Shown: positions 22,244-35,204 of the stretch, one piece after another
Numbering within the stretch: position 1 is the first letter of the stretch
How the letters are laid out: each line of letters begins with the position of its first letter
Assembly (NCBI GenBank): GCA_963676455.1
Contig: OY781113.1
Coordinates: forward strand, 571,136-635,135
Origin: an uncultured Draconibacterium sp.
Lineage (GTDB): Bacteria; Bacteroidota; Bacteroidia; Bacteroidales; Prolixibacteraceae
Direction of reading: 5' to 3'
DNA length: 64,000 nt
The notes under the pieces: generated by a model
The model's input: only the letters and a program-made list of their open reading frames with translations
Told to the model about the DNA's origin: nothing
Database searches by the model: none
Program-made: the position numbers and the translations under genes

Positions 22244-23542
22244 TTATTGAGCTTGATGTGCCTTTACGATTTCTACCATAGCCTTTAACTTATAATATTC
22301 TCTATCGGTAGAACCTGCATAAGAAATAGAATAAAACCGGATATTGCCCTTAGTATCGAAAACTATTTTATTTGGCGTTGCAGCTACCTCATATGTTTCG
22401 TTATCCTCATCATGTAATACATCCAGAGAAATCCCTTTTTTGGCTATAAAGCTTTTAACTGTTTCCTGCTCTTCAAATATATCGATAACAAAAAGTTGGA
22501 AAGGCTCATTTTTATATTCAGAAACAACACGTTCAAATCCGGGAAAAGAAGCTACACAAGGCGTACACATGGTGGTCCAAAAGTCGATAACAAGAATTTT
22601 TCCTTTATAATCACTAAAGTTTATGGTATTACCATTCAAGTCTGGTAAGGAAATATCATATGCATGCTTAGTAGCATTAAAAATAGTAAATGTTTTATCA
22701 CTATCACTAGGGTCTGGGACTACACCTTGAAATGGTATCGTGCTTTCTGCTATGTACAGTTTTTCAACTTCTTTGTATTCCTTTTCATAAGCCTCTTCCT
22801 GTAAATCTGTAATTAATTTATCGGCTCCTTTATCGCTCTCGTGTACTTTTATATAAATCTTTCTTAGAGTCTGAATCAATTTAGGATTTGAGTCTGCATT
22901 CCGAACTGCATTAACGAGCGTATCTAATGCCTCTTTGTCCTCACCTGCTGCTGATAAAACAATAGCGTATCGGTTATAGTAATTGGCTTTAGAATCCTTA
23001 AAATATTTTATTTCCCTGGCTCCATCCTTAATATCTGATGACTTTTTAATATTTTTTAAAGCCACATCAACGTTTCCTAATTCAGCATTAGCCATGGCAT
23101 TTACCTCTAGTAACACCTGTAATTGAAAAATGCTTATTACATCTTCATCATTATCTTTTTTCTCAATATCGTTTATAAGACCTGCTGAAATTTCTTCAAC
23201 AATATTTAAGTATTTTTTATCTTCCACCAAATCTTGTAAAACATAGGTTAAATTAATCAAACCTACACTTGACATTTCAGGAACTGTTTGCATATAATAT
23301 CTGTATTTTTCAACATTTCCCTTAGCTAACCAATTAGATGCTATAGATTCACGAATTACGTTATACAGTTTAGTATTGGATTCATCCTCAGCTTCTTCCT
23401 GAAGCATTTTATTAAAATACACCTCCTGATCTTCTACTTTTACAATCAAATTAAAATCCTCATAGTTGTACTTTTTAATTGCATCCTGTTGTGCCCAGCT
23501 TGAACAGCTTATCATTAAAAGACAGATTAATAGTTTATTCAT
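22244..23542 (-). CDS. TlpA-like thioredoxin with helical/TPR-like N-terminus and atypical CTPC motif
   Basis: Signal peptide; VIDFWTTMCTPCVASFPG; ATPNKIVFD. Confidence 0.85.
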   Translation of the reverse strand: MNKLLICLLMISCSSWAQQDAIKKYNYEDFNLIVKVEDQEVYFNKMLQEEAEDESNTKLYNVIRESIASNWLAKGNVEKYRYYMQTVPEMSSVGLINLTYVLQDLVEDKKYLNIVEEISAGLINDIEKKDNDEDVISIFQLQVLLEVNAMANAELGNVDVALKNIKKSSDIKDGAREIKYFKDSKANYYNRYAIVLSAAGEDKEALDTLVNAVRNADSNPKLIQTLRKIYIKVHESDKGADKLITDLQEEAYEKEYKEVEKLYIAESTIPFQGVVPDPSDSDKTFTIFNATKHAYDISLPDLNGNTINFSDYKGKILVIDFWTTMCTPCVASFPGFERVVSEYKNEPFQLFVIDIFEEQETVKSFIAKKGISLDVLHDEDNETYEVAATPNKIVFDTKGNIRFYSISYAGSTDREYYKLKAMVEIVKAHQAQ

Positions 23543-23558
23543 AGTATTTTTATTTTGT

Positions 23559-24656
23559 TTATTTAATTAATTCTGCAAGCCTTTGTTGTAACGCCTGCCC
23601 TTTTAAGCCTCTCCCTATAATTTTTCCATTTTTGTCTATAAGAAAATTATCTGGAATAACGCTTACTCCATAAAGTTTTGCTGCTTCATTACCAGCCCCT
23701 TTTAAATCACTGACTTGTTTCCATGGCAGACTATCTTCCTTTATCGCTTTTAACCAAGCTTCTTTATCAGAATCTAGAGATACAGCTAGAATTGTAAAAT
23801 TTTTATCTTTGAATTTATTATATGCATTAAGAACGTTTGGATTTTCTGCCCTGCAGGGGGCGCACCAACTTGCCCAAAAATCCAAAAGCAAATACTTGCC
23901 CTTGTAGGATGCAAGTGATACGGGGTTGCCTTCTGGGTCATTCATGGTAAAGTCTGCTGCGATTATTTCTCCAGACTCAAACTTCTTTGCCTCATTCAAT
24001 CGTGGTTTCAAAGCAACAATTTTTGGCGTATTTTTCATTCTATCGCTTAACGTCTCATACATTGGCTCAACTATATTTAGGTTTATTGCACCTCCTGTTG
24101 TAAACAAATCCATAAGATCAACGCTAACATAACTGTCAGGATGACTTTTAATAAAATCTGCAACCAAATTCTCATAAAATGCCATTGTAATTTGATCATC
24201 TTTTAGGGCTTTGGATTTCGTTTCACTCATCTTAGCATATGCTTGCCAAGTTTTCTGCTCAGTACCTCCACCTGAATAAGACGCTATACCAGTAGAATCA
24301 AAAGAGATATCAATAGTTCCATCTAAATAAATTAGGGCCACATTTTTCATCGTTGAACCATCCTGCTCAATTTGGGAACTATCTATATCCTTCTTTGTAA
24401 GAGCTATTAGATTCAGTTCTGCCAATTGTGGTCTGCCAATTGTTCCTTTAAATTCAAATTTCCCATTTTTAATGGCAATAGTATCTGACTTGTAAGCTTC
24501 GCCTTTATCATTTTCAGGATATGATATTACAACTATATCTGCTTTTGTATTTGATGAAATTTTACCTTTTATAGTATATTCCACCCCGATAGAATCATTA
24601 TGTTTGCAAGCGGAAATTAGACTTGTAAACAATAGTAATAACAAATATTTCCTCAT
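23559..24656 (-). CDS. DUF4369-TlpA thioredoxin lipoprotein
   Basis: Lipobox ISAC; DTIAIKNGKFEFKG N-domain; LLDFWASWCAPCRAENP. Confidence 0.9.
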   Translation of the reverse strand: MRKYLLLLLFTSLISACKHNDSIGVEYTIKGKISSNTKADIVVISYPENDKGEAYKSDTIAIKNGKFEFKGTIGRPQLAELNLIALTKKDIDSSQIEQDGSTMKNVALIYLDGTIDISFDSTGIASYSGGGTEQKTWQAYAKMSETKSKALKDDQITMAFYENLVADFIKSHPDSYVSVDLMDLFTTGGAINLNIVEPMYETLSDRMKNTPKIVALKPRLNEAKKFESGEIIAADFTMNDPEGNPVSLASYKGKYLLLDFWASWCAPCRAENPNVLNAYNKFKDKNFTILAVSLDSDKEAWLKAIKEDSLPWKQVSDLKGAGNEAAKLYGVSVIPDNFLIDKNGKIIGRGLKGQALQQRLAELIK

Positions 24657-24664
24657 AATTTTAT

Positions 24665-26116
24665 CTAATCATTTTCAATTAGATTGGGGTTTTGTGAAGT
24701 AACTACCCCTCCAAATCTTAATACCAATCTTTCTGGAGTTAGTGTATAACTTTCCAATAAGTCACCTTCGGAATTATATTTATTATGTGTATAATTCACC
24801 AGGTTATTATAATCTGGATCTACAGATAATCTTCTCATATCAAACCATCTATACCCGCTTAATGGAAACTCTCTAATACGTTCTTCAAAAATAAATTTCA
24901 CTAAATTGTTTTGATTTGATGCAACTTCTGTTGGAACAGACGCGTCGCTTACAGGCATTCTTTTAGATCTAAAATTTTCAAGTGAGGTAGTTGCTTCTTC
25001 CAAAAATCCTAAACGTGCATTCGCCTCAATTATTAATAAATAAACGTCTGGTAAATATACTCCTGCTTGTTGCTGTAATGGACCAACTTTTCTTAACATG
25101 CCGTTAGGGTAATAAGGGGAAAAACCAAAAAACTCAGCATCGGAGAAAAAATTCAACCTTAAATCGGAATCATTATACAAATTTGCTGTTTCTGTACTTA
25201 TTACAAATTCATTATTTATAAATGCCCACGAATTAAAAACAGACCTGTCATACATTACTTCTGTATTATTTTTTGATAAAATGGATGCAGGACCAAAAAA
25301 AGGATCTATTGGTGTAAATACACCTTCATCTAAAAGTTCTAAATTATAATCATAAAGATTTACATTAATTTCAGAGCTTTGCGCATAGGTTAATGCTTGC
25401 TTAAGGTGAACTAATGCACTATCATATTTATGCTGAAACATTAATATTTTACCTAGCAAACCTTCTGCTGCTGCTTTAGATGCTCTATGCCTGCTACTAA
25501 CCGATTCTGGAAGATTGGGTAGTGCGCTTTCTATATCCTCGATAATGAAGTTATAAACTTCTTCCACTGTATTTCTAGTGAAGTTGGTTGAAGTTATATT
25601 TGAATATGTAACGATAGGAAGTCCTAAATCTGAACTAGCTGTAGACGCATCGTATGGCTTTCCATAATAATTTATAAGCATAAAATAATTAAAAGCTCTT
25701 CCTAAACGAGCTTCTGCTTCAAGCTTTTGCTTTTCTGAATCAGTTCCACCATTGGAGTCACTCACTTCATTAATTATTTTATTATAAACATACAAGGATG
25801 CCATTAATGGCTCAAGCTCTTGTGAATTTTGATCTGGATTATAAATATCGGCCTTCCACTGAAATGTTCTGCGAGGTCTTAGTTCAATAGTTGAATAAAA
25901 TGGATCGATAGCTGCCACTTCATCTCCCATTGGAACAGTAATATTAGACAACTCTCTTAATGAAGGATCTTCTAATAACAAATCATAATCTTCAGTATTT
26001 TGTGCTATTAAATTCCCTTTGGGAATCACTTCTAAAAAATCTTCACTACACGCAACCATTGATGCAGCAAGTAATGAAAAAACAAATAACCTTATGTGAA
26101 ATATTTTAATATTCAT
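24665..26116 (-). CDS. susD: RagB/SusD-family nutrient-binding lipoprotein
   Basis: Lipobox MVAC-SEDFLEVIPKG; EARLGRAFNYF; YLLIIEANAR; ERIREF...RWFDMRR. Confidence 0.92.
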   Translation of the reverse strand: MNIKIFHIRLFVFSLLAASMVACSEDFLEVIPKGNLIAQNTEDYDLLLEDPSLRELSNITVPMGDEVAAIDPFYSTIELRPRRTFQWKADIYNPDQNSQELEPLMASLYVYNKIINEVSDSNGGTDSEKQKLEAEARLGRAFNYFMLINYYGKPYDASTASSDLGLPIVTYSNITSTNFTRNTVEEVYNFIIEDIESALPNLPESVSSRHRASKAAAEGLLGKILMFQHKYDSALVHLKQALTYAQSSEINVNLYDYNLELLDEGVFTPIDPFFGPASILSKNNTEVMYDRSVFNSWAFINNEFVISTETANLYNDSDLRLNFFSDAEFFGFSPYYPNGMLRKVGPLQQQAGVYLPDVYLLIIEANARLGFLEEATTSLENFRSKRMPVSDASVPTEVASNQNNLVKFIFEERIREFPLSGYRWFDMRRLSVDPDYNNLVNYTHNKYNSEGDLLESYTLTPERLVLRFGGVVTSQNPNLIEND

Positions 26117-28063
26117 GAGTAACTATTTTTGTAATTATTAAAAGGATAAATGAACACCTAAAGCAATGCTTCCTTGATTTCTTTTAATATTTCTTTGACC
26201 AGTACCATAATAGGTGTATTGAAATTCTGGATCGATGCCAGATTTATTAGCTTTCCATAGCATTAAATTTGATACTGATAATCTGAAAGTTAAACCATCT
26301 ATCTTAAGTTTATCTAACACATTTTTGGGAATTCCGTAAGACAATGTAATGTCTCTTAATTTAATATAGGAAGCGTTTAATACATTTGTATTTCCTTTCA
26401 TATAATAATAGGTATCTCTGGTATTTCCAGTAAAAGTTCCTGAAGGATCATAAGAAGGAATATCTGTAATCAATTCGTCACCCGGCTTCTTCCACCTGTT
26501 TACAAAATCACTATGAGGAACATCTTCTAAAAGTGATGAGTAATTTGAATTTACATCCTTTCTCATCACATGGCCTAAATTGTATACCGTATTTATACTT
26601 AAATTAAAGTCTTTATATCTAAAAGAATTAGAGAAACCACCACTCCAAATTGGTTGCGATGTTCCCATATATATAACATCTTCTGCCGAAGTAACATTTG
26701 GCTCTTTAGTTATTGTACCATCACTTAAACGGATTAAAGGATCTCCTTCACCATCCAACCCTTGGTAGTCGTAGGCAAAGATGGCAAAAGCTGGATAGCC
26801 TTTTAAGTATGCCAAATTCACTTTTTGAGCTCCTGTTGTTACATCACCCGGTAATAATAATTCAGTAATTTTGTTTTTATTGTAAGCCATGGTAAACAAA
26901 GTAGTCCAACCAAAATCTTCATTTTGAACATTAATTGTTTTCAATGTTAACTCAAAACCTTTATTTTCCATAGAACCAAAATTCCCAATAGCTGATGGAA
27001 ACCCTGAAAACACATTAAGCGGTAATTGGCCCAACAGATTATCTGTATTTTTCTTATATATATCTAAATAAGCTGTTATTACATTAAGCAATCCAAAATC
27101 AACACCAAGATTTAAAGTTTTGGTACTTTCCCATTTTAAATTTGGGTTACCAGGTGTTTGAATAGTTAATGGGATGATGTTTCCGGTTAAACTATAACCT
27201 GTTTGTGGCCTTAAAATATCATATGATGAAGATGTCCCTGGTGTAGGCGCGTTACCCGTAATACCATATGTTCCTCTTAATGTCAGAAAATTAAGGGGTG
27301 TGACATTTTCAAAAAATGTCTCTCTCCCGATGTTCCACTTACCACCAACACTCCATGTTGGCTTATTTTGTGCTGATTTATCTAATCCGAACAAATTACT
27401 CTTATCCCGTCTCCAACTTCCATTAATGGTATATTTCCTATTTAAGGTATAGCCTGCATTCATATAGTAAGAAGTAAATCGACTTAAAACTTCAGATCGA
27501 GTAAAGGAGTCATCTGGTAAAAAACTTTGGTTCCCAGCGTTTGGCATTACCGGGTTATCGATTCCATTATTTTTTAATGTAGCATAATCTACAGATAAAT
27601 AGGTCTGTAATAACGGATTATAACCACGAACTGTTGTATTTGTAATTTCGGTTAATTGTTCTTGTGCTTCTTGTCCTAATATTACATTAACTTGATGCTT
27701 ACTATCATCCCAACTTTTATCGAATGATAGTTGATTTCTTACGGTATAATTTCTATTAGAAATGTTGCTTTCACTGTATTTGCCTCCGGTTTCGGGTAGA
27801 TAATAAATAGGAGTGGCATCTGGTGAATCTGCAACGGTAAACTGGGCTAATTCACTTCGTACACTATAGCTTTCATCACTTGTGTAATTGGAAACCTTAT
27901 TAGAACCTTGAGTGTAGCTATAAGTACCATTAAACGTAATTCCCCACATAAGAACCTCCGAAATAGATTTAAACTAAAGTTATCTATTCCTCCAGCCCTG
28001 ATTAAATCCTTTTGCTAACGTAGAGGGGAGCCCTGATTAAAAGTCTTGCTATATTTGGAACAG

Positions 28064-28265
28064 GCTCTTTGTGTAACCGATTTTTAAAATGGTGCTTTTA
28101 AAGCCCGTGCGTAATTCTGGTTGAAATGTAAAAAGCCCCTGAAGAGCATTTCAAGGGCCTGTTGATAAATCCAGTGGTGGCACTGACGATTAATGCCAGC
28201 GACCCCGTTCAGAATATTTTTCGACTCAAAGATACATTTCCTTAGGGCTTTTTACTGATTAATTC
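28064..28265 (+). ncRNA. Putative IS110 bridge RNA (boundaries approximate)
   Basis: Lies in the left non-coding end downstream of a TATATTTG -7-like element (28050-28057). Contains stems (TTGAAATG/CATTTCAA, GCCC/GGGC) and matches to both junctions: CGTAATTC at 28110-28117 and TCAGAATATT at 28209-28218. Confidence 0.5.
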
Positions 28266-28272
28266 TAAAATT

Positions 28273-29652
28273 ATGGCAAGGAAAAAGAAAATTGAAATGG
28301 ACATCGTCAACCATTATGCAGCAGGAATCGATGTGGGGAGCAAGTCTCATTTTGTTGCAGTAGGGCAGGCCCTGGACGATGTAAAAGAATTTGGCGTATA
28401 TGCCGAGGATTTGATTGAACTATGCCAATGGTTGTTGTCATTCGGAATCACAACGGTAGCAATGGAATCGACAGGTGACTATTGGCAAAACCTCTATGTA
28501 GAATTGCAAAAACATGGCATTGAAGTAATCCTGTGCAATGGAAAATTTACAAAACATGCCAAAGGGAAAAAGACCGATGTAAAAGACAGTCGATGGATTC
28601 AGAAACTACATTCACTGGGATTATTATCTGGCAGCTTTTTGCCTGACAAAACCACTGAAATACTTCGCACTTATTGCCGTCAAAGGGCAAATTGGATCGA
28701 GCAGGCAGCAAGCGCATCTCATAAAATGCAGAAGTACTTAAAACTTCTGAACTTTCGATTGGATGTTGTCGTAAATGATGTGTGTGGACTTACAGGTCTG
28801 AACATTATCCAGGACATTTGCAATGGAAACCTCGACCCATTTTTATTAGCAGAACACAGACATTACAATTGCAGGAAACCAAAACAGGAAATAGCAAAAG
28901 CACTACATGGAAACAACCGCGAGGATTACCTGTTTGGCCTCAGACAAGAGTTCGACAGCTACAGGTTTTTCCAAAGAAAAATGAAAGCATGCGACAAAGA
29001 AATTGAGCGGCTAATCAAAAATGAAATAAAAAAGTCACCCGAAAAGAAAAAACTTAAAACCACTGAAAAACCATACAAGAAAATCAACAAAAATGCCGTT
29101 GACATTAAGAATTTTAACCAAATTGCTTTCCAGTACTTTGGGGGAACCGACTTAATGGCTGTTGAAGGAGTAAGCCATGCTACGGTTATGGCAATAATGA
29201 GCGAAATAGGAATCGATGGTTTTAAAAAGTTTAAATCCGCAAAACAGTTTTGCTCCTGGTTACGACTGGCCCCAAACAATAAAATATCAGGAGGGAGAAT
29301 CCTGAGCAACAAAATCCCAAAAGGAAGCAACCGACTAAAAATAGCATTACGTCATTCTGCAAATGCAATTGGAAATTTAAAAGATACACACCTGTCTGAC
29401 TTTTTTCGCAGAATAGCTTTCAGAAAAGGAAGACAGTCGGCAGTTTCTGCCACCGCCAGAAAACTGGCAACAATTATCTGGACAATGATTGTGAAAAATG
29501 TACCCTATAATCCTCCCTCCCAATACCTGTTCCTCGACCAAAAAAGAAAGATGGGAATAGCAAAAAGAATTAAAAAACAAATCGCTAAATTTGACATAAA
29601 ACCCAATGAAATTGGACTTGGTAACTCATTGAGCCCCAACTACAATTTTTAA
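28273..29652 (+). CDS. IS110-family DEDD recombinase/transposase
   Basis: GIDVGSK (D), AMESTG (E), KTDVKD (DD) RuvC-like domain; C-terminal Tnp20 domain with RLAPNNKISGG catalytic-Ser motif. Confidence 0.95.
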   Translation: MARKKKIEMDIVNHYAAGIDVGSKSHFVAVGQALDDVKEFGVYAEDLIELCQWLLSFGITTVAMESTGDYWQNLYVELQKHGIEVILCNGKFTKHAKGKKTDVKDSRWIQKLHSLGLLSGSFLPDKTTEILRTYCRQRANWIEQAASASHKMQKYLKLLNFRLDVVVNDVCGLTGLNIIQDICNGNLDPFLLAEHRHYNCRKPKQEIAKALHGNNREDYLFGLRQEFDSYRFFQRKMKACDKEIERLIKNEIKKSPEKKKLKTTEKPYKKINKNAVDIKNFNQIAFQYFGGTDLMAVEGVSHATVMAIMSEIGIDGFKKFKSAKQFCSWLRLAPNNKISGGRILSNKIPKGSNRLKIALRHSANAIGNLKDTHLSDFFRRIAFRKGRQSAVSATARKLATIIWTMIVKNVPYNPPSQYLFLDQKRKMGIAKRIKKQIAKFDIKPNEIGLGNSLSPNYNF

Positions 29653-31511
29653 CGTTAGTCAGAATATTATCAAAAACATCAATAATCACCCCTCCAATTA
29701 AACGAGTGTTAAAAGCTTCTGAAGTTTCATCTGAAAAATTTCTTTCATCTAAAGGGTTATAATTCAAATCAATTCTGGATCTTGCTTCAAAATCTGCCCT
29801 AACATCTTCTGTTAGCATCCCCATAAAAGGAATTGAAATATTGTTACCATTATCGTCTCTAAATAATTGATATGGAAAAAAGCTATTGGTAATACTTAAA
29901 TTATTCTTAGTAAGGGATTTTGTTTTTGTGAAATCGGTAATCAAGAAAGACCTAATTTTGTTATTAAATTTAAAATCTTGTCTTACATTTAATTTATAAA
30001 GTTCATCAGTATCCCCAGGTCTATCTGATTTTGTATCAGTATATGCCATAGATGCGTAAGCTGAATGCTTTTCACCACCAAATGAAAGTGATAAAGTATG
30101 ATTTGTTTGCATGGCTTTCCGATACCATAATTTCTTAATTTGATCTCTATTATTGATATTCGATAAACTATCCAGCCTGGCATTTGCAACATTACTAGAT
30201 ATAACACCTCGATATTCGTCATAAAGCGTTTGTAAATGTGGAGGGGTACCGCTAGCGTCAAAAAAATAAGCGTTTAATTCATTATAAGAGTTAGATTCCG
30301 GATCAAAAACTTCTTTTGCTGCATTAATCAATTCTGAGCTATTCAGATATGGTTGATAATCCAAATCTGGACGACCTTGAATATTAGTAAAAGCATCATA
30401 CTCAATCTTCAATTCACTATTGTTTTCAGCCTTTTTTGTGGTGATTACAATAACACCATTTGCTGCTCTAGCCCCCCAGATAGATGAAGCAGTTGCATCC
30501 TTTAAAACCGTAACATCCTCTATATCTTGTGGATTTATATAAGAAATGTTATTGTTTGGAATCCCATCTACAACGAATAAAGGATTTCTATTTGTACCTG
30601 TACCTGTAGCTATATTATCGTCTGAATTAAATGTCCCAATACTTGTTAAACCTCTAATTAAATAAGGATTAGAAGCTGCATCCGGAGAATTATTAATAGT
30701 CAATCCAGCAACCAATCCATCTAGTTTTTGAACTATATTCATTGAGAAGTTTCTTTCTTTAGCTATTGTTAGATCTGGCTTAGAAAAAGACCCGGAACTA
30801 CGCTCTTTTGAGAGCTTTTGGTAACCAGTTGAAACGATCTCAACAGCTTCAAGTTCTGTAACATCTTCTTCTAATATAACATCTATATTTGTTTTATCAC
30901 CTACTAAAACTTCTTTAAACTTAAACCCCAAAGACTTGAAAACAAGTATATTTTCACGCGATGGAACTGTTATTTTATAATTCCCGTCATAATCTGATAT
31001 AACGCCTGTCGTAGTTCCCTTAATAAATATAACTGCACTACCAATAGGTAGCCCATTTGCATCTGTTACCTTTCCAGAAACTTGAATTTTTTGTTGAGTG
31101 TTTCTACTTTTAACTATAATTTTATTATCTGTTGATATTACAGTATAAAAATCATTTGAAGAAAGACTGCTTTTCAAAAGCTCATCTACGCTAATTGTAC
31201 CTTTTTGTAATTGTACTTTTGGTGCATCCTTAAATAAATCTTGCGGATAAATAAAACGGTAATCCGTTTGTGTCTTGATAATATCAAAAACATCTTCAAC
31301 CGTTACTTCTTTATCGGTATCAATTTTAACCTTGTTTTGAGCGAAACTGTTTTCAGGTTTCAACGAAAAAGCCGTTGTGCAGAATAAAATAATAAAGGTT
31401 TTAATAATCAATAATCGCAACCGTTTTTGCATGAGATAACGGCCTGTGCTAAATTTAATTTCCATAAATTTGCTTTGTTTTTATTAGACAATTGTTTGAT
31501 AAATACTATCT

Positions 31512-31561
31512 AAAGAGACGAAGTTGAGTCATCGCCAAATGTTTGACTTCGCTCTCTTTTT
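31512..31561 (-). terminator. Hairpin between fecR and susC (terminator/attenuator-like)
   Basis: AAAGAG-ACGAAGT...ACTTCG-CTCTCTTTT imperfect inverted repeat in the 5' leader of susC. Confidence 0.55.
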
Positions 31562-31638
31562 ATGTTTTTATAATAAAATCATTTTACTCTTTCGTAGAAA
31601 AATCTTAAAATCATAATTTCTAAATTTCAATTTATAGT

Positions 31639-32811
31639 TCACTTTAGTATAACCCTTTTATTATGAATTTCGTAATTTTTAATAACTCCGAAATCTTTAA
31701 TGATTTCCAAAATTTCATCAATACTTTGTTCTTTACCTAACACACCACTAAAACCTACTGATTCCAAGTCCTTATTTTCAAAATCCACCTCCATATCATA
31801 CCATCTAGATAAAACTTGCATAATCTCTTTTAGGCTTTTCCTTTTAAAGCTGAATACGCCTTTTTTCCATGAAATTTGATCGTATACATCAACCATGGAT
31901 ATGTTTGCGTTTTTGGTAAAAATATTTAGGTTCAATTGTTCACCTGGTTTCAGAATTTTGTTTTGGTTTTCAAAACTGACAGCCACCTTGCCCTGTACCA
32001 GTGTAGTATATACATTAGTTTCTTCTTTGTAAGCCTTAATATTAAACTCAGTACCTAGAACCTGTACTTCCTGTTGGTCGTGAATCACCCTAAAGTCAGC
32101 CCCTTTGTGTTCGGTGCTGTGGGATACGTCAAAATAGGCTTCGCCATAGACTAATTCCACTTGACGGCTCTCCCCATCGGTAAAACTCACTGGGAATTTT
32201 AGCAGGCTTTCGGAGTTTAACCATACCTCAGTATCGTCGGACAGTTTGATGTGAAATTGACCGCCTTGTGGTACAGAAAGGTAGTTATAAACCAACTCTT
32301 GTGATGAACTATTTGCTGAATTGTTATATACAATTTCTTCACCGTTGCTGGTTGCGTTTTGGGTTTGGTAGGTTATACCTTTTACTAGAGCGACTGCTTC
32401 TCCATTGTTTAAGGTAAGGGTAGCCTTTTCTGTTCCTGGTTCGATTTCGTTGTTGACAATGATTGGAGTTGTATTATTAAATGAAGAGTCGGTTATATTG
32501 TCCTTAAAAAAATAGGTAGTGGCCAAAATGCCGACAACCATAGCAGCGGCAGCGTAATGCCAATATATATTGCGTACCGGAACTTCTATTCTAGATTTTA
32601 TTTTTTTCCAATCGGATTTTTTGTCGATTTGTTTTTTTATGTCTAAACGCTGTTTTATAAGAGATTCATCCGTTAGATTTGTAAGAATATGGGTTTTATT
32701 ATCTTCATTAAACAAGTCGGATTTGTTTAAATCTGTAGGTTGTTCATCCTTTAATAGCGCATTTGCTATTTGTTTGGATAGAATTATGATTTTATTAAAA
32801 ATAGGCAACAT
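31639..32811 (-). CDS. fecR: FecR-family anti-sigma factor
   Basis: TM segment (HYAAAAMVVGIL); GGQFHIKLSDDTEVWLNSES, GEAYFDV, VLGTEFNI and SWKKGVFSF motifs. Confidence 0.93.
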   Translation of the reverse strand: MLPIFNKIIILSKQIANALLKDEQPTDLNKSDLFNEDNKTHILTNLTDESLIKQRLDIKKQIDKKSDWKKIKSRIEVPVRNIYWHYAAAAMVVGILATTYFFKDNITDSSFNNTTPIIVNNEIEPGTEKATLTLNNGEAVALVKGITYQTQNATSNGEEIVYNNSANSSSQELVYNYLSVPQGGQFHIKLSDDTEVWLNSESLLKFPVSFTDGESRQVELVYGEAYFDVSHSTEHKGADFRVIHDQQEVQVLGTEFNIKAYKEETNVYTTLVQGKVAVSFENQNKILKPGEQLNLNIFTKNANISMVDVYDQISWKKGVFSFKRKSLKEIMQVLSRWYDMEVDFENKDLESVGFSGVLGKEQSIDEILEIIKDFGVIKNYEIHNKRVILK

Positions 32812-32957
32812 ATTATATCATTATTTGGAGTTATGACGACAAAATGTTGCACTAGGGTTAAAATATTTGAAAAATTGTTATTTTTTTTGAATTCACAGGA
32901 TATTGAAAGTGTTATGAAACGATTTCAAAAAGAATTAACGTGCGTTCAATTTTGTTC

Positions 32958-33500
32958 TTAATTAACAGATACAAATATAAAAGCAATAAGGATGAAGTAG
33001 TCTTTTAATAAAGGTTTGAGGCGTTTGTAGGCTATTTTTTTTTGTGCCTTAACTGTATTAATTGAAATGTTCATTTCTTTGGCAATTTCTTCATTTGAAA
33101 AACTTTTGATACTCAAACGAATGATTTGGGCACATCGGTTAGGCAATTTGCTAATGGCCTCTTCGATAATCTTTGAGGTCTCAATAATTACCACTTCACG
33201 CAAAAAAAAAGGTTCGGTTTCGAGTTGTTCCATTTCACCAACTGATAAACGATCGGTTGTTTTAAAATGTTTGCTTTTAAGGTAATCCAAGCATTTGTTT
33301 TTTACCGAAGTGTATAAATACGATTTAATGTTGTTTTCATCACGAAATTCAGTTTTATCTTCCCAAATTTTTACAAAGACATCCTGAACAATATCTTTAG
33401 AGACCTCTAAATTTTCGATGTACTTATTGGCAAAAAGGCATAGCGATACATAAAGTTTATTAAAAAGACTTTTGTATTCTTTTAAATCCAACTTATACAT
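32958..33500 (-). CDS. ECF RNA polymerase sigma-70 factor (Bacteroides expansion type)
   Basis: DIVQDVFVKIW, SYLYTSVKNKCLD, LPNRCAQI and ISINTVKAQ motifs. The likely start is ATG at 33500 rather than 33605. Confidence 0.92.
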   Translation of the reverse strand: MYKLDLKEYKSLFNKLYVSLCLFANKYIENLEVSKDIVQDVFVKIWEDKTEFRDENNIKSYLYTSVKNKCLDYLKSKHFKTTDRLSVGEMEQLETEPFFLREVVIIETSKIIEEAISKLPNRCAQIIRLSIKSFSNEEIAKEMNISINTVKAQKKIAYKRLKPLLKDYFILIAFIFVSVN

Positions 33501-33741
33501 ATATGCACTTGCAAAATTTATTAAACCCTTCCAAATCCAAATAAAAGAAACCAAATATAATGAAAAGATTAAGTTTACTGAACGCTTTCCCTGTTTCCGG
33601 TCCAATCAAAAATGTAGTTTTAACAAAAGCTTAGTTTTAAGACAGTACTTTTGAGATCAAAATATCATTCATCTTGTGCAACATCAGTCCGTTCGGAGTA
33701 CTAAAAAAGAGCGAGAGTTACGTTTGGCAAAGTTTGTTATT

Positions 33742-35204
33742 TAGTTAAACCTTAAAAAGTCTACTATTTTTTGGAACCTTATCTTTGAAAAAAAGCAATT
33801 TCCCAAGACTTAAGATTTGAATAAGGTCAAAAAGAATTTGCTCTTTAATTCTATTGAGCATTTTCTTCAGGTTGTAACCTGTTCCGGCCAATATTGTATT
33901 TAATTGGTCACCAATTACACCTTTCAAATAATTTCTTAACATTCTGTGATCGTATTTGATATGACTAATCACTGGTTCTATTCCTGCCCTTGCCCTAAAT
34001 TGTTTCCTTGCTTTCTGTTTTTGGTATTGTGTGGTTTCATTTTTAGGGACCGATGGTGATATGATTTCTGTTCCATTAATTTTCTTTTTCCCTTTATAGC
34101 CCCTATCAACAATTCCTGTTTTTGGTTTGCTTTCTGTTAAATATTCTGTTTGGGTAAAATGTTCTTCAAGTGTATGACCATCGTAGGGGTTGCCTTCAAA
34201 AGCAATAGCACCCACTACAATCTTAGTGGTTTTAGTTAATACAATCCCCGATTTATTCCCAAACTCAAACTTCTTGGCTTCTTTTCCCTTCGCAATACAA
34301 CTAACCTCTGGTTCGTGAATGCTGTAAATCTTATTTTTATCTGTCTTTTCCTGAAGTAAAATCTTATTGAGAATGATGAACAACTCCTTATATTTTTGTT
34401 GCTGTACAGGTGTAAACTTTCTTTCAATATCCCTGACCTGGCGGCCTGCTATGGTTTTGATTTTGCGCATGGCTGCTTTGGCTTGCTTTTTCCTTCTGGG
34501 ATGACTGTGAAAACGCTGGTCTATCATTAACTGCTTTAAAGTCCTTGTATAAGTTTGGCGCAATGTTATCCCTTCCTGTTTGGCTATCTTGTTTACTTTC
34601 CCGATAATACGTTTATGCAGTTTCGCATCGGTCGGGTAGGTAATGTTCTTCTCCTGCACGGTACTGTCAATCAACACCTCTTTTTCTTGAGCCTCTTTTC
34701 CAAATAGTTGTATCGATACTTTCAATAGTTTTTCCGCACCTTCTTTGCCTATCCGGTTCCTAAAATGTATAAATTCTGTCGGGTCGAAGGGCTTTTGGGT
34801 TTGAAAAACTTTCTCGCCGCTAAAGTATTGCCAGTACGGGTTTTCAATCCACCTGTCAACCATGGCCTCGTCACTTAAATTATAGATGTGCTTTAGCAAT
34901 AGCAGTCCAACCATCCTGCGGATAGGAACTGAAGGACGGCCCGTTTCCGAATAATAAACAGAAAACTCTTCCTCAATTGAATCCCAATCTATTTGATGAG
35001 ATAAAATACAAAGTTCATGTTCTAAATTAATGAACCTCTTCAGAGGTGTGTCAAAAATACTCAACTGTGGTGCTTTGTCTTGTTTCCCAACCATATCTGC
35101 AAGCTTTTTCACTAATTTACCTATTTGCTTGCATTTTTAGAAACCAAATAAAAATTGTTATGAATTGATTATCAGCAACCTATTGTGTTTTTAAGGTTTG
35201 ACTA
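33742..35204 (-). mobile_element. IS5-family element, copy 2 (complete, 1463 bp)
   Basis: 17-bp terminal IRs TAGT(T/C)AAACCTTAAAAA at 33742-33758 and 35188-35204 (one mismatch). The terminal TA may be a target duplication. Confidence 0.92.
33745..35112 (-). CDS. IS5-family DDE transposase
   Basis: Protein identical to 10401-11774 except for the last residues; the stop codon lies in the right IR. Confidence 0.95.
   Translation of the reverse strand: MKKLADMVGKQDKAPQLSIFDTPLKRFINLEHELCILSHQIDWDSIEEEFSVYYSETGRPSVPIRRMVGLLLLKHIYNLSDEAMVDRWIENPYWQYFSGEKVFQTQKPFDPTEFIHFRNRIGKEGAEKLLKVSIQLFGKEAQEKEVLIDSTVQEKNITYPTDAKLHKRIIGKVNKIAKQEGITLRQTYTRTLKQLMIDQRFHSHPRRKKQAKAAMRKIKTIAGRQVRDIERKFTPVQQQKYKELFIILNKILLQEKTDKNKIYSIHEPEVSCIAKGKEAKKFEFGNKSGIVLTKTTKIVVGAIAFEGNPYDGHTLEEHFTQTEYLTESKPKTGIVDRGYKGKKKINGTEIISPSVPKNETTQYQKQKARKQFRARAGIEPVISHIKYDHRMLRNYLKGVIGDQLNTILAGTGYNLKKMLNRIKEQILFDLIQILSLGKLLFFKDKVPKNSRLFKV

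Follow-up and report, generated by a model that had tools for sequence, protein, structure and literature searches.

IS621 and IS622 of E. coli (Durrant 2024, Hiraizumi 2024 and 2026, Perry 2025) are the closest described counterparts of the element reported here, an IS110-family insertion sequence (IS) that interrupts a susC gene of an uncultured Draconibacterium sp. The stretch analysed, called the window below, comprises 64,000 nt (GenBank assembly GCA_963676455.1, contig OY781113.1, positions 571,136 to 635,135 of the forward strand). Like IS621 and IS622, the element encodes a recombinase with a DEDD RuvC-like domain and a Tnp domain containing a serine. Its left end, ahead of the recombinase gene, is likewise long and non-coding, and the element has neither inverted repeats nor a target duplication. 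Both systems share 9-nt left-target and left-donor guides, candidates in our case, which read in sense and end on a 2-nt core with T as its second base. Both also insert beside sequences resembling the element's own right end ('half-match' insertion). We consider it highly probable that this is an active, bridge-type IS110-family element that recently inserted into susC of a SusC/SusD locus controlled by an extracytoplasmic function (ECF) sigma factor and its anti-sigma factor, in one Draconibacterium-like strain.

Other members of the family also offer a comparison. IS492 of Pseudoalteromonas atlantica interrupts a surface-related gene at the eps locus, and there, as here, precise excision would restore the gene. 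High-frequency, context-dependent excision of IS492 was shown by experiment (Higgins 2007, as cited in PMC2536512), whereas for our element, which lies antisense to its host gene, excision is conjectural. ISPpu9 and ISPpu10, which target repetitive extragenic palindromic (REP) sequences and form modular circles, and IS4321/IS5075 and the IS1111-attC group, which target the ends of mobile elements, resemble our element in another respect, as most of its copies lie at a fixed distance and orientation after repeat ends. The repeats differ from those of the ISPpu9/IS4321-type systems, and the genome is that of a Bacteroidota. Here the targets include a 331-bp satellite, repeats similar to the right end of the IS, and the end of an element of the IS91 family that carries a tyrosine recombinase.

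Insertion into susC and the empty site

The junctions, read directly from the sequence, are TAAACGT-AAT-TCCCC on the left and GTTAGTCAG-AAT-ATTATC on the right, exactly as given in the preliminary description of this DNA (coordinates in Table 1). When the 1725 bp between the two AAT triplets are deleted, all four equivalent frames of the deletion lead to an identical product sequence. The minus-strand open reading frames (ORFs) 29585..31465 (first) and 26138..27949 (second) are then fused into a single uninterrupted ORF of 1200 codons (26138..31465 minus the insert). The fused frame reads through ..IIDVFDNITFNGTY.. and carries ..DVFDNITFNGTY.. at residues 596-607.

This reconstruction is matched by real empty alleles. 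The locus of a conspecific strain (L073) shares 99.5% nucleotide identity with the window on both sides of the insert. Its alignments to the window, at 23138-27940 and 29663-33743, share exactly 3 nt of the locus. Its empty site reads GATAAT-ATT-ACGTTTAATGG on the susC strand, or CCATTAAACGT-AAT-ATTATC in window orientation, with a single AAT. A relative of about 95% identity (L054) likewise has an empty site with one AAT. The rebuilt protein and the product of the L073 locus (P0254) differ at 1 of 1200 residues. A DNA-level search of 40 species-level relatives found no empty site; these alleles were located instead through a protein cluster and exact-protein look-ups. The cluster, built at 90% identity and containing the rebuilt SusC, holds 23 sequences; 22 are intact at 1200 aa, and the sole truncated member (626 aa) is that of this genome. 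A third assembly, ERZ21831104, encodes a recombinase identical to that of the window (loci L074 and L075) and keeps an intact susC (P0247, 10 differences) on the 2,482,096-bp contig of L074. Together, the empty alleles of other strains and the identical recombinase beside an intact susC indicate a strain-specific polymorphism, and the element appears to be active in the species. The insertion is recent, as had been proposed, because the copy in susC is 100% identical to three other copies in the genome and susC has no further lesion.

The recombinase matches the two Pfam families expected of an IS110-family protein: PF01548 (DEDD_Tnp_IS110; 73.8 bits against a cut-off of 29, residues 17-158) and PF02371 (Transposase_20; 44 bits against 21.3, residues 294-367). 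Residues D20, E65, D102 and D105 can be read as the DEDD set; S339, within ..NNKISGG.., is the presumed catalytic serine, assigned by motif alone. The protein has more than 7,700 scored homologues at E<=1e-5. Non-coding DNA covers 332 nt upstream of the gene and 10 nt downstream. Terminal inverted repeats are absent, the left end TCCCCACATAAG showing no match to the complement of the right end, CTGACTAACGTT.

A copy misplaced into susC during the assembly of a repeat-rich genome was also considered. The genome does contain 20 near-identical copies, four of them 100% identical to one another. However, it was assembled as one 6.72-Mb contig with 100% completeness, both susC junctions lie in unique DNA, the ends are as exact as in the other copies, and the site fits the candidate target guide described below. 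We give practically no weight to an assembly artefact.

The insertion truncates SusC after codon 600, and in this the preliminary description is supported. The present translation appends 26 codons of the IS, giving a 626-aa product. The CarboxypepD_reg and Plug domains were found by Pfam in the upstream fragment. With 600 of 1200 residues lost, one ECF-sigma-controlled SusC/SusD uptake locus in one strain would probably be silenced, and a polar effect on the susD-like gene downstream (24665..26116) is probable as well.

The preliminary description went further and saw in the insertion an ON/OFF switch for the transporter, a claim for which we found no support. Such a programmed, reversible switch would operate by frequent precise excision, as IS492 does at eps. 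Scarless excision is indeed a property of the family, and post-excision junctions were detected for IS621. In addition, IS492 is a family precedent for phase variation; recombinase and RNA could come in trans from the 19 other copies, and empty alleles exist within the species (L073, P0247). However, the flanks in strains with empty alleles differ from ours by at least 0.5%, hence these alleles look ancestral rather than revertant. Unrelated unique sites hold five of the 20 copies; of the four outside susC, at least three interrupt ORFs, a pattern suggestive of scattered off-targets more than of a dedicated locus. Excision has been published as less efficient than insertion, and a preprint describes it as mainly single-strand copy-out, which leaves the donor site occupied. 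IS621 excision required transcription through the element. As the IS is antisense to susC, read-through from the susC promoter would be unable to transcribe it in sense. A switch is thus very unlikely, and the event in susC is an ordinary, strain-level disruption of one SusC/SusD uptake locus.

Guide candidates in the left end and the crossover core

Left ends were aligned with those of elements from G016, G007 and a metagenome (L066), which share about 82-84% DNA identity, and from G031, G033 and G004, at 65-71%. RNAalifold, run on 8 sequences, found 37 consensus pairs; compensatory changes support 14 of these. Two segments of the left end behave like guides in sense orientation, covarying with the flanks or with the right end; the left-target and left-donor guides of IS621 are likewise in sense.

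The first segment lies in a candidate target-binding loop, where stem P1 (28075-79 / 28118-22) and hairpin P2 (28089-28108) enclose a 9x9 internal loop with AUUUUUAAA as its 5' strand and GCGUAAUUC as its 3' strand. The candidate target guide is on the 3' strand, and it matches the left flank at L074, CCGTT-GTGTGTAAT, at 8 of 9 positions. In related elements the guide reads ..GCGCAU instead of ..GCGUAAU, in step with left junctions of CAT instead of AAT. In G007 and L066 it is GGCGCAU and the flanks end ..GCGCAT or ..GGGCAT (GTAGCGCAT, GTGTGGCAT, ATGGGGCAT). Upstream positions 1-6 of the insertion sites fit the target guide better than background: with wobble pairs (G-T, U-G) counted, at least 5 of them pair in 8 of 17 insertion sites, compared with 4.4% of AAT sites overall. 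At the susC site 5 of the 6 positions are paired, with CGTAAT contiguous.

The second segment, the candidate donor guide, follows hairpin P2', whose stem retains its pairing while different complementary sequences replace it lineage by lineage. This guide changes together with the right-end tip: UCAG-AAU with GTCAG-AAT in the window element, UUGG-AAU with GTTGG-AAT in the G004 element, and AUAC-AAU with TATAC-AAT in the 331-bp satellite. Covariation of guide and flank thus extends over four lineages for the target guide and three right-end types for the donor guide.

Upstream of both segments, TATATTTG keeps its position in relatives (TAAATTTG, TAATTTTG). The -7 promoter consensus of Bacteroidota is TAnnTTTG. 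The sequence fits it and could be an internal promoter for a guide RNA, a feature by which the element would differ from IS621 and IS622.

The preliminary description took AAT to be the recombination core and contrasted it with the CT of IS621. The triplet is correct for the junctions of this copy, it lies on both sides of 16 of the 20 copies in this genome, and both guide-like segments end in AAU, so that all three bases coincide in target and donor in this lineage. However, G007 (two sites), L066 and G004 have CAT at the left junction and AAT at the right, with ..CAU in the target guide and ..AAU in the donor guide, and one satellite copy combines a left TAT with a right AAT. When target and donor differ at a base, and each flank retains its own version, that base is no part of the exchanged core. 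Because the first A differs between junctions and always follows its own guide, we assign it to position 7 of the left-target and left-donor arms. Every guide contains AT, as does every junction pair apart from the mismatch cases described below. The crossover core is most likely the dinucleotide AT, preceded in this lineage by A at position 7 of both arms. In IS621 the core is CT at positions 8-9, where T is almost invariant and the first base variable, and AT supports recombination in experiments. An AT core would differ from that of IS621 solely at its poorly conserved first base. A trinucleotide core forming a class distinct from CT is therefore unlikely, and the term AAT core overstates the difference. 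As to position 7, the site-selection rules for IS622 avoid the same base in target and donor, which interferes with the handshake step. The element described here offers bridge-recombinase biology a natural case of a probable AT core and of the identity at position 7 that engineered IS622 systems avoid.

The preliminary description was right in reading the bases shared by element and target as a recombination core. A 3-bp target-site duplication, generated by a cut-and-paste transposase, would explain the 3-nt direct repeat around this single copy. However, almost every copy has this triplet at its flanks, and it is encoded twice in the RNA of the element itself. Where flanks differ they are asymmetric, AAT on the left and AAG on the right, and the literature ascribes such 'duplications' in IS110/IS1111 elements to mis-set ends. 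A duplication of the target is extremely improbable.

Not every junction is perfect. A different core at other copies, which the preliminary description had named as a point that would count against its proposal, was found in part, since 4 of the 20 copies have AAG on the right and the others AAT. Overall, right-junction mismatches (AAG or AAA) occur in six copies: two belong to G016, and of the four in this genome a pair has a duplicated right flank in common. One satellite copy has a left-junction mismatch, AAC. These cases fit insertion at a site whose core T is not perfectly matched, the heteroduplex then being resolved in one direction or the other; later mutation is an alternative possibility.

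Several observations weigh against the assignment of the element to the bridge type. The recombinase is longer than those of IS621 and IS622 (459 aa) and too distant from them for a match in the Protein Data Bank (PDB), a sequence search of which returned nothing even at E<=10. An Rfam scan of the element, left end included, gave no family at E<=1. A right-donor guide complementary to AT-TCCCC.. (GGGGAAU or wobble variants) was sought in the left end and none was recognised. The right-target guide is another weak point. The 5' strand of one loop (loop A), UUUUUAAAAU, has complementarity with the right flank in its usual form, AT-TTTAAAAA, and in G033 it reads ..CAAUU, changing with its flank, AAT-TG. 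As the flanks are AT-rich and the match is weak at several sites, we place the right-target guide in this strand tentatively. In both loops (28075-28122 and 28174-28215) the left guides lie 3' of their hairpins, the reverse of IS621. At 4 of the 20 right junctions the AAG leaves the core T unmatched, and the most conserved feature of the targets, a CGTT box at -13 to -10, falls outside both 9-nt guides. The eight sequences suggest that the bridge RNA architecture is permuted in this clade, with the order right-arm strand, hairpin, left guide.

Two other candidates were rejected. GGGGAG, considered as the right-donor guide, is not conserved and precedes the likely promoter. A CCCGU segment, found ahead of each guide and considered to pair with the CGT box through a 3-nt DNA bulge, was discarded because the L074 flank CCGTT-GTGTGTAAT shows a plain 9-nt register and RNAalifold places CCGU in stem P2.

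Taking the bridge-type assignment as the preferred one, insertion can be outlined as follows. A circular copy with the junction ..GTCAGA-AT-TCCCC.. would be the donor. Guide RNA expressed from the left end would direct it, GUGCGUAAU reading the left target and GUUCAGAAU the element's right end. The circle would recombine with the chromosomal ..AAACGTA-AT-ATTATC.. by strand exchange at the shared AT. No base was gained or lost on insertion, which is why the 1725-bp deletion restores susC. The usual landing sites are the ends of other repeats and mobile elements finishing in CGTTA-N5-AAT, with susC as a degenerate match in unique DNA.

Table 1. Coordinates in the window of the element, its candidate RNA features and the surrounding genes
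Feature	Position	Strand	Basis or remark
susD-like gene	24665..26116	-	downstream of broken susC
susC 3' part, codons 601-1200	26138..27937	-	start now lost
Left AAT	27938..27940	+	left-target position 7 (A) plus AT, the most likely core; equals ATT codon, Ile600, on the susC strand
IS110-family element	27941..29662	+	1722 bp between AAT triplets; one of 20 genomic copies
Non-coding left end, 332 nt	27941..28272	+	upstream of recombinase gene; starts TCCCCACATAAG; bridge-RNA-like structured region
GCTAACG	28014..28020	+	invariant in all relatives examined; GATAACG in satellite
TATATTTG, putative internal promoter -7 box	28050..28057	+	position kept in relatives
Target-binding loop candidate	28075..28122	+	RNAalifold consensus
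Left-target guide candidate GUGCGUAAU	28107..28115	+	sense of left target plus core; covaries with left flanks
Hairpin P2'	28174..28207	+	precedes donor guide; compensatory pairs, alignment columns 124-129 / 141-147
Left-donor guide candidate GUUCAGAAU	28207..28215	+	sense of right-end tip plus core; covaries with right end
Recombinase gene, 459 aa	28273..29652	+	Pfam matches; motifs by reading
Right-end tip CGTTAGTCAG	29653..29662	+	10 nt, directly after stop codon
Right AAT	29663..29665	+	junction read; copy comparison
susC 5' part, codons 1-600	29666..31465	-	N-terminal extension, CarboxypepD_reg domain, plug, barrel start
FecR-type anti-sigma gene	31639..32811	-	upstream of susC
ECF sigma factor gene	32958..33605	-	upstream of susC

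Genomic copies and target choice

All 20 full-length copies in the genome (98-100% identity) start with TCCCCACATAAG and end with AACGTTAGTCAG. The left flank finishes in AAT in every copy and the right flank begins with AAT in 16 and with AAG in 4, so that the flanking triplet is no coincidence. The orientation relative to the conserved left-flank sequence is the same in 20 of 20. CGTT occupies -13 to -10 of the left flank in 18 of the 20. Fifteen copies directly follow repeats ending in CGTTA-N5-AAT. The other five are in unique DNA and, besides susC, three of them interrupt ORFs (362, 1109 and 143 aa). The susC site, CATTA-AACGT-AAT, is a degenerate target compatible with the guide; it preserves the CGTAAT match but has CATT where CGTT is usual.

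The genome shows no excess of the motif CGTTA-N5-AAT, whose 400 sites compare with an expectation of about 432, and TCCCC follows in just 24 cases. Thus, more than the motif must decide target choice. The CGTT box, which has no counterpart in IS621 and IS622 and lies 4 nt beyond the guide footprint, is also present in the right end of the element. Target choice appears to lean more on this box, outside the known guide footprint, than on the distal bases of the guide. GCTAACG in the left end is the reverse complement of the CGTTAGC box of the right end and the targets; as it lies upstream of the likely -7 box, it may be outside the RNA.

Two observations concern the arrangement of copies. In ERZ21831104, the assembly of a sister strain, locus L075 carries tandem head-to-tail IS copies with AAT alone between them, so that ..GTCAG-AAT-TCCCC.. 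is found on both sides of one copy. In our genome, two IS copies (in C1:1607607-1612442 and in C1:6576792-6581627) have different left flanks and share an identical right flank and identical spacing of the downstream repeats, which points to an IS-associated duplication or recombination of about 5 kb.

Satellite, repeats and gene arrays

A 331-bp element without recombinase gene, present in 12 copies (e.g. G000:C1:1476733-1477063 = L056:1234-1564) and nearly confined to this genome, aligns with the left end of the IS. This satellite keeps both guide loops, the target-type one with UCAGAAU, equal to the IS right end, and the donor-type one with AUACAAU, equal to its own end. Eight of 10 complete satellite copies lie directly after ..GTCAG-AAT, and five IS copies lie directly after a satellite. 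Small non-coding modules of this kind seem to travel by means of the recombinase, as ssr9 hitch-hikes with ISPpu9. Unlike ssr9, an unrelated small RNA, the satellite looks like its own bridge RNA gene with changed guides. The 20 copies, this retargeted RNA-only satellite and the sister strains with empty sites would make this genome a convenient natural system in which to study how faithfully targets are chosen, how half-match insertion occurs and how modules hitch-hike.

In about 31 repeats the final 168 bp or so of the IS are present at 89-99% identity. Three repeat classes can be told apart: the first and third share a 5' module of about 125 nt (AATAAGGGATCAATCACACG..), and the first and second end in the 3' part of the IS. 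The class that has the module of about 125 nt and lacks the IS 3' part numbers about 21 copies. Repeats with either component all end in CGTTA-N5-AA(T/G). In about ten genomic regions they stand between co-oriented accessory genes, giving cassette-like arrays. One of these, C1:4869000-4888900 (L055), includes ABC-3C-type, BlaI/BlaR1-type, peptidase S41 and glycosyltransferase genes. Just upstream of that array, L055:244-360 (C1:4869243-4869359) matches the Rfam group II intron family (domain V/VI) with 47 bits against a gathering score of 40.

An integron origin of the arrays and of the CGTTA box, which is GTTRRRY-like, was considered and rejected. A search for IntI-type integrases (TIGR02249, cut-off 265 bits) gave none above the cut-off, the best region, C1:6575868-6576668, scoring 121.9 and 88.2 bits in two pieces, and reading of the sequences revealed no convincing attC-type inverted repeat. 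The multi-copy recombinases belong to IS91-family elements. One of these elements (L063:2109-4063, C1:5313109-5315063; 7 genomic copies) encodes an IS91-family transposase (Y2_Tnp + Zn_Tnp_IS91) and a 276-aa tyrosine recombinase. In this genome, and in G007 and G016, several IS110 copies are inserted at the conserved end of the IS91-family element (..ACATGTACCAACCGTTA..).

It is tempting to propose that the hit in susC is an off-target of a larger, self-targeting modular system made of the IS, the satellite and roughly 45 or more repeats ended by CGTTA-N5-AAT. In such a system an RNA-guided recombinase with a permuted guide RNA would build and shuffle the gene arrays, and the CGTT box would possibly be read by GCUAACG. 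We hold this as a tentative possibility, doubtful at present. The expanded IS110 loci recently described (Hu et al., bioRxiv 2026, 10.64898/2026.08.14.744561) are similar in their tandem modules, in non-coding repeat units with left-donor-like ends and in cargo genes between the units. They differ in that the repeats here lie between numerous co-oriented accessory genes in about ten parts of the genome. The satellite and the arrays may be further examples of published modular hitch-hikers and expanded IS110 loci rather than something new; current understanding is unchanged unless these side observations hold up.

The genes around susC show a minor difference between strains. The order of the anti-sigma and ECF sigma genes upstream of susC is also kept in L054 and L073. 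A 365-aa gene with DUF4369 and AhpC/TSA (thioredoxin-like) domains follows susD in the window (23559-24656). It is present in the conspecific L073 and missing from L054, where the next thioredoxin-like gene follows directly.

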